NCBI RefSeq assembly: GCF_029227915.1
Contig: NC_079880.1
Span: 19,707,855 to 19,771,854, forward strand
DNA: 64,000 bases
Direction of reading: 5' to 3'
Source of the DNA: Hydractinia symbiolongicarpus
Lineage: Eukaryota
The notes under the pieces were generated by a model, which had not been told where the DNA came from, searched no databases, and was given only the letters and a program-made list of their open reading frames with translations. The position numbers and the translations under genes are program-made. Numbering within the stretch: position 1 is the first letter of the stretch; each line of letters begins with the position of its first letter. Of the stretch, positions 61,917 to 62,674 are shown one piece after another.

Positions 61917-62674
61917 CCCTATTCGGTCCGAGGGGGGGCGGATTCCGCCCCCCCCCCCTGACGGTTTTTTTTAATAACTCCTTGTTGCTTTGTTATATGG
62001 CTATGATACTTACTGAGTTTCAATATTTATCTATTACACACCTGCATGCTAAATTTTTAGCTCCCATACCTTTCACAGGCTTTGATATTGGCCATTACTT
62101 GAAACTGCCCCTAAAAATCTCTATGAAATCCTTATAATGGAGAAAATATTATAACTCCTGTTAGGATTATCCTTAGAACTTGAAACTTGCAACGCAACTT
62201 TATTTCATCAAGAAAAATCATTTTGAATAATTTGGACACGTGACTAATCCTATTTCCCGATTTTGTCGGATTTTACCCGAAAATCTAAAAAAGCCGGATT
62301 TTTGGGCAATTTTTTGGCAATTTCTTATGCGATCCATGCAAAAACCAGAAGATATGTTAAATAGCTTTTATTAAGCTTTCAGAAACTTCAAACAGAATGT
62401 AAAAATTCGCTCTAGAATAAAAGTAATTAAATTTTAAGCAGATAGTGGCATTTTTAAAAATTTTCAAGCTTCTGATGACGTCACAGAAAAATGTGCTGAC
62501 GCAAGCAAAAATTTATTGCCGCCATTTTGTTTTTTTTATGACGTACTATAAGTGTGCCAAGTTTGATTCAATTTGAACAATCCTATAAAAAGTTATTGGG
62601 GTGGGGGGGGGGGGGGCAGAATCCGCCCCCCCCCCCGGTCATAGTATGTTTGGAAAACCCCGGACCGAATAGGG
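61917..62674 (+). mobile_element. Full-length 758 bp copy of the piggyBac-like MITE family: TIR CCCTATTCGGTCCG, G/C-homopolymer-rich subterminal regions, TTAA target at the 5' side and CTAA (degenerate TTAA) at the 3' side. Non-coding.
   Basis: The 5' end is TTAA|CCCTATTCGGTCCGAGGGGGGGCGGATTCCGCCCCCCCCCCTGACGG. The 3' end is GGGGGGGGGGGGGGCAGAATCCGCCCCCCCCCCCGG...CGGACCGAATAGGG|CTAA. The termini are reverse complements. Four other partial copies in the window share the sequence. Confidence 0.8.

Follow-up and report, generated by a model that had tools for sequence, protein, structure and literature searches.

A probable piggyBac-type MITE family with G/C-rich sub-terminal palindromes in the hydrozoan Hydractinia symbiolongicarpus

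DNA transposons of the piggyBac superfamily are recognized by a TTAA duplication, terminal repeats of 12 to 19 bp, and a CC[C/T]T tip (PMC2872659), and among 157 piggyBac-like elements the terminal repeat averages 14 ± 2 bp and follows the motif C[C/A/T][C/A/T][T/G/A][T/A/G][T/G/A] (PMC5381638). Many piggyBac-like elements, those of structural groups SG2 and SG4 among them, have sub-terminal inverted repeats as well, often palindromic ones, although the feature is not universal (PMC5381638). One such case is piggyBac from T. ni, in which a palindromic internal repeat lies 3 bp from the left terminal repeat and 31 bp from the right one (bp 17-35 and 45-63); this repeat is the binding site of the dimerized cysteine-rich (zinc-finger) domain of the transposase, and asymmetry between the left and right ends is needed for transposition in cells (PMC5381638, PMC7351741). 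A cnidarian precedent exists in corals, where noncoding MITEs termed CMITEs are linked to piggyBac-like transposons (PMC2872659).

We analyzed a 64-kb window of H. symbiolongicarpus DNA (the whole stretch of 64,000 nt), which is AT-rich, with a G+C content of ~33 to 35%, and contains non-LTR retrotransposon open reading frames (ORFs). [quoted passage not shown] Its one complete copy is bounded by perfect 14-bp terminal inverted repeats, and the 14-mer, with at most two mismatches allowed, is found four times in the window, where 0.09 occurrences are expected. At 758 bp, noncoding, and with both terminal repeats and a target duplication, the complete copy has the size (less than ~800 bp) and structure of a MITE. 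An earlier note, made by a model from the sequence alone, had reported this copy and four partial ones, and a BLASTN and nhmmer search of the 64-kb window with the 758-bp unit recovered exactly those and nothing further. The four partial pieces are all on the plus strand and are 75 to 82% identical to the complete copy. The features of the family are collected in Table 1.

Table 1. Features of the complete copy and of the four partial copies, with three-taxon branch lengths under the Kimura two-parameter (K2P) model
Feature	Position	Strand	Basis	Branch length (substitutions per site)
Complete copy, 758 bp	61917..62674			0.045-0.115
Left flanking TTAA (target-site duplication) of complete copy	61913..61916	+	sequence	
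Left terminal inverted repeat CCCTATTCGGTCCG, 14 bp, CCCT tip	61917..61930	+	inverted-repeat pairing	
Left sub-terminal palindrome G7-CGGATTCCG-C11, element bp 16-42	61932..61958	+	inverted-repeat pairing	
Conserved block TGACGGTTTTTTTTAATAACTCC, directly inside left palindrome, common to 3 of 4 left ends	61959..61981	+	copy alignment	
Central block kept in three copies, CACGTG plus repeated (C/G)CGGATTT / CCCGAAAAT	62235..62310	+	copy alignment	
TGACGTCA, CRE-type palindrome, specific to complete copy	62476..62483	.	copy alignment	
Right sub-terminal palindrome G14-CAGAATCCG-C11, bp 39-72 from right tip	62603..62636	+	inverted-repeat pairing	
24-bp spacer from right palindrome to right terminal repeat, kept in 45271 copy	62637..62660	+	copy alignment	
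Right terminal inverted repeat CGGACCGAATAGGG	62661..62674	+	inverted-repeat pairing	
Right flank CTAA, taken as a TTAA duplication in which one T became C	62675..62678	+	sequence	
33843, left-end fragment after TTAA, element bp 1-71, 82% identity, G14...C7 block	33839..33915	+	BLASTN/nhmmer	
36267, left fragment after TTAA, element bp 1-260, 75% identity	36263..36513	+	BLASTN/nhmmer	0.24
45271, right fragment (45271-45676), element bp ~271-758, 77-79% identity, ends GGG then TTAA	45271..45680	+	BLASTN/nhmmer	0.18
49645, left fragment after TTAA, element bp 1-402, 81% identity, tip CCTT	49641..50045	+	BLASTN/nhmmer	0.12-0.17

The boundaries of the element can be read directly from the copies, as the homology between them ends exactly at the termini at four left and two right ends. 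These six ends make up the whole of the flank evidence, and TTAA abuts five of them, namely, all four left ends and the right end at 45676; the TTAA proposed by the earlier note for both sides is thus seen everywhere except at the right flank of the complete copy, where CTAA stands instead. Since TTAA occupies only 1.03% of the positions in the window, five exact flanks out of six are far beyond chance. No direct repeat longer than TTAA was found beyond the ends, and TTAA is therefore read as a duplication rather than as part of the repeat unit. It could be argued that the duplication is just TA, as in Tc1/mariner-like elements, or TWA, as in PIF/Harbinger-like elements, and that the outer T and A are chance or element-end bases, because TTAA includes TA, TTA, and TAA and the CTAA of the complete copy still has TA and TAA. 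However, T stands at position -4 in all four left ends and A at position +4 in both right ends, for which the chance under the TA or TWA reading is ~0.335^6, or ~0.001, at the base composition of the window. The keeping of both outer bases favors a 4-bp TTAA duplication over a 2-bp or 3-bp one; moreover, a 3-bp duplication leaves the two ends asymmetric, and a CCCT tip is atypical of both Tc1/mariner and PIF/Harbinger. We regard the shorter duplications as most improbable and retain TTAA.

The terminal repeat, at 14 bp and with the start CCCTAT, agrees with both published definitions of the piggyBac repeat (PMC2872659, PMC5381638). Other copies begin CCCTAA, CCCTAA, and CCTTAT, so that the CCC described by the earlier note as following TTAA is present at all left ends but that at 49645, which starts with CCT. 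The right tip is GGG, and the GGG followed immediately by TTAA at the end of the right fragment was correctly noted. Two other superfamilies must be weighed at this point, as the element could be a non-autonomous member of Sola, which makes 4-bp duplications, has group-specific termini and a DDD transposase of its own, and is abundant in Hydra, or of Kolobok. Kolobok likewise targets TTAA, and its T2-MITEs (Xenopus Xmix) share with our element the TTAA target, the MITE size, and the inverted termini (PMC6004289). Kolobok termini, however, are purine, with an RR tip in general, AGGRR in the T2-MITEs, and AG in 10 of 10 full-length Xenopus elements (PMC6004289), whereas the tips seen here, with CCC or CCT at left ends and GGG at right ends, read YY...RR, not RR...YY. 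The Kolobok terminus is therefore absent, and the pyrimidine tips exclude that superfamily. piggyBac is matched by the tip (CCCT), by the length of the terminal repeat (14 bp), and by the palindromic sub-terminal repeat with its asymmetric placement, and a Kolobok or Sola origin appears quite unlikely.

The poly-G and poly-C runs that the earlier note had called unusual are real, and each end of the element has them as the two arms of a palindrome, a sub-terminal inverted repeat of 27 to 31 bp; the left palindrome (61932-61958) pairs with 62606-62632 over 27-nt arms that are 96% complementary. The spacing of the palindromes is asymmetric, with the left one placed 1 bp inside its terminal repeat and the right one 24 bp inside, so that the element has the palindromic sub-terminal repeat with asymmetric spacing described for other piggyBac-like transposons. 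The window has eight G/C homopolymers of at least 7 nt, six of which fall within copies of the family, and decayed but recognizable palindromes are present in the other copies, from which it follows that the G/C feature belongs to the family, although the length of the tracts varies, as is usual for homopolymers. Across the copies the runs measure 7 to 14 nt rather than the 10 to 14 nt given earlier.

A comparison with T. ni piggyBac (IFP2) is informative. Both elements have a TTAA target and a terminal repeat of 13 to 14 bp that starts with CCCTA, beyond which no sequence similarity was found, and the 758-bp element is noncoding, unlike T. ni piggyBac. In both, a palindrome lies much closer to the left repeat than to the right one, with spacings of 3 and 31 bp in T. 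ni piggyBac and 1 and 24 bp here. The positions also agree closely, at bp 17-35 versus 16-42 on the left and bp 45-63 versus 39-72 on the right, but the T. ni palindrome has the form TGCGT...ACGCA, whereas in ours homopolymer arms of G and of C flank CGGATTCCG. This reproduction of the T. ni geometry is the strongest additional argument for the piggyBac assignment, and by analogy the G/C palindromes are better read as a version of the piggyBac internal repeat belonging to this lineage than as an oddity of composition. The element contains the hexamer CGGATT, which is the palindrome core, four times (0.25 expected), a pattern spotted post hoc. Its recurrence in the conserved central block might represent extra transposase-binding sites and is a candidate lead.

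A different view of the same tracts is that they act as structure-forming modules, either a cruciform or a G14/C11 G-quadruplex or i-motif, with which a hydrozoan piggyBac lineage marks or synapses its ends, or that they serve as hotspots of slippage or breakage causing the frequent truncation of copies. If this were true, hundreds or thousands of such structures, along with CRE and E-box motifs, would have been seeded across the genome. The left palindrome folds as a hairpin of -15 kcal/mol, which is barely better than shuffled sequence, and single-strand folding compared with composition-matched shuffles gave no significant gain (z = -2.0, -1.3, +0.3, and -0.2). The significance of the palindromes thus rests on their position and on their conservation between left and right ends, not on thermodynamics. 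We consider the structural explanation very doubtful. Reading the tracts as an internal repeat of the piggyBac kind is preferred.

The complete copy does not encode a protein. Its longest stop-free stretch is 72 codons, in agreement with the earlier description of the elements as noncoding, and its translated and aligned frames matched none of 5.8 billion proteins. An origin from an RNA gene or a SINE was considered and rejected, since a search of the 758-bp element with Rfam at the gathering threshold and with a tRNA search returned nothing; below the threshold, Rfam gave just low-complexity, microRNA-like matches on the G/C hairpin. No piggyBac transposase was detected in the 64-kb window by tblastn with an approximate T. 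ni piggyBac sequence (best E = 3.6). The H. symbiolongicarpus genome does, in its RepeatMasker annotation, contain 338 pieces of piggyBac, and 48% of it is unclassified repeat (PMC10411563). The annotated pieces make it plausible that a partner transposase of the DDE_Tnp_1_7 type (PF13843), as expected for an autonomous piggyBac element, is encoded in the genome, and a family like the 758-bp one could sit among the unclassified repeats.

On the model of T. ni piggyBac, we infer the identity of the transposase, its binding of the palindromes, and the past mobility of the family as follows. A transposase of the piggyBac-like type, encoded at another genomic locus, would have recognized the 14-bp, CCCT-tipped terminal repeats and, through a dimeric C-terminal DNA-binding domain, may also have recognized the palindromic G/C-rich sub-terminal repeats. 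The unequal spacing (1 bp at the left end, 24 bp at the right) would have made the two ends distinct. The enzyme would then have excised the element and inserted it at TTAA sites, with duplication of TTAA. Amplification of the family would have taken place long ago, after which the local copies diverged, were mostly truncated, or may have been broken by later insertions. The reading of the elements as non-autonomous piggyBac-superfamily transposons, already put forward in the earlier note, fits every end-based test that we ran, including TTAA, the 14-bp repeat with a CC[C/T]T tip, the palindromes, and the pyrimidine tips.

Coral CMITEs and the AmiPB1-6 elements of Acropora are, like our element, cnidarian and TTAA flanked, with CCCT-tipped repeats of 13 to 14 bp (PMC2872659). 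The AmiPB1 repeat CCCTTTCCCGTCC agrees with our terminal repeat at 10 of 13 positions, a match that is not significant after multiple comparisons and is only a lead. The CMITEs are ~100 bp in length with a conserved 75-bp core, whereas our 758-bp element has G/C palindromes and an interior unrelated to theirs. Among vertebrates, piggyBac MITEs include human MER85 and MER75 and the TxpB-derived MITEs of Xenopus. These and tagalong/TFP3 are sub-kilobase, noncoding, and TTAA specific and are presumably mobilized in trans by piggyBac-type transposases; they occur in other hosts, and their sequences are unrelated to that of our element, but the life style is alike. We know of no G/C-homopolymer palindromes in tagalong/TFP3 or in the vertebrate MITEs. 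Tagalong/TFP3, mentioned in PMC8634313, is a lepidopteran TTAA-specific non-autonomous element.

Pattern scans of DNA collections without hydrozoan genomes returned 53 loci in metagenome contigs, all by chance and none with CCCTAT upstream or BLAST similarity, 0 loci in viral contigs, and 12 loci in prokaryotic genome contigs, all of them chance 18-mers. In the library of papers searched, the terminal repeat sequence gave unrelated primer matches only.

The five copies counted earlier are five pieces, one complete and four truncated, and they represent four or five insertions, of unequal lengths and confined to the second half of the 64-kb window. The count depends on whether the fragments at 36267 (bp 1-260) and 45271 (bp 271-758), which have adjoining element coordinates and a common orientation, are two halves of one split copy, for which we put the odds at roughly even. 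If they are, the TTAA/TTAA duplication around the copy is perfect. The 8.7 kb that separates them contains a LINE (~38560-42613), a MITE-like inverted repeat, and 7TM-like ORFs, and the interval as a whole lacks terminal repeats of its own. A 20-bp candidate duplication at the junctions was not significant, as 347 of 2,000 shuffles scored as highly. The ORFs argue against an interval made up purely of transposon insertions. They lie on the plus strand at 43097-43777 and 44330-44584, are 7TM/GPCR-like, and have a weak match to the TAS2R Pfam family (E = 0.0085). The inverted repeat is a pair of ~35-bp arms (GCTGAAATACAGGTTAAGTTTAAACGAACCGTTTAG...) at 37581-37615 and 37991-38024, ~440 bp apart, and looks like an unrelated second MITE.

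Several further junctions were seen in the window. Directly behind the 33843 fragment, in place of the element body, stands a tandem array of a 10-bp unit (TTTTACATAA, nine times) at 33934-34025. GGGTTAA at 34235-34241, 400 bp downstream, was tried as the right end of the 33843 copy and rejected, with a terminal-repeat match at only 6 of 14 positions. GGGTTAACCC junctions occur at 23240-23249, inside a small palindrome, and at 35092-35101. No convincing terminal-repeat partners were found for the junctions at 23240, 35092, and 34235, which may be the ends of other piggyBac-like elements.

The copies in the window are old, at ~5 to 24% divergence per branch. The complete copy is the youngest of them and yet is not fresh, one base of its duplication having mutated. 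The suggestion in the earlier note that the family is possibly still mobilizable is not borne out by branches of 0.05 to 0.24 substitutions per site, the truncation of four of the five pieces, and the mutated flank of the complete copy.

It was also proposed earlier that the family could distribute CRE sites. The palindrome TGACGTCA is indeed present in the complete copy, but the only other copy that covers this position reads TGATGTTGTCAT, and five of the six such palindromes in the window lie outside the family, at 1916, 3031, 3352, 6950, and 62861, four of them within the first 7 kb. A broader form of the idea is that the family persists through a regulatory module co-opted near genes and consisting of the CRE, the E-box CACGTG, and a YY1-like motif, GCCGCCATTTTG. 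Consistent with this, the complete copy contains five TGACG motifs, a density of 6.6 per kb where the window has 1.3 per kb, CACGTG is kept in three copies, and the fragment at 49645 lies just downstream of a toxin-like gene. However, the sole other copy spanning the right-part motifs has lost the CRE along with other CpG motifs, CTGACATGAGC and TGCTGCCATTTT standing in their place, and these changes follow the pattern of CpG decay. The CRE palindrome is in any case enriched in the window as a whole, with 6 occurrences against 0.71 expected from shuffles; the motifs were chosen post hoc; and four of the five pieces are truncated, at differing points, as neutral decay predicts. A regulatory role of this kind is very unlikely, and we prefer the interpretation of the family as decaying piggyBac-type MITEs.

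The value of the assignment is modest, as it places one family in piggyBac where about half of the genome sequence is unclassified repeat (PMC10411563), and it alters no concept. It does supply a search key for an autonomous hydrozoan piggyBac, namely, TTAA, CCCTATTCGGTCCG, and a palindrome of G-run, CGGATTCCG, and C-run, and the asymmetric palindromic sub-terminal repeat is a further independent case of an end architecture that is important in T. ni piggyBac.

The surroundings of the family contain other repeats and genes. A non-LTR retrotransposon is present twice, at 38560-42613 on the minus strand and at 53062-54791 on the plus strand; its two copies share 98.6% identity across 1.7 kb, and it looks recently active. 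The longer copy has an endonuclease ORF (40794-42173), a reverse-transcriptase ORF (38892-40787), and an (AAT)n tail, with a tandem array of four 90-bp units on its 5' side at 42244-42613. Between 16000 and 20000 the G+C content rises to 41 to 45%, against ~33% elsewhere, and this region includes a 70-bp tandem duplication at 19460-19671 that is 99% identical. An actinoporin/tereporin-like exon (Pfam Anemone_cytotox) on the minus strand at 50199-50681 has its best protein matches in H. symbiolongicarpus, with 80% identity to a tereporin-Ca1-like protein, and 47% identity in Clytia. The truncated transposon fragment at 49645-50045 lies downstream of this ORF, 154 bp past its stop codon, and so may fall in the 3' untranslated region. 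An ORF of 226 amino acids with a caspase domain (Peptidase_C14, E = 9e-13) is located at 31997-32677 on the minus strand.
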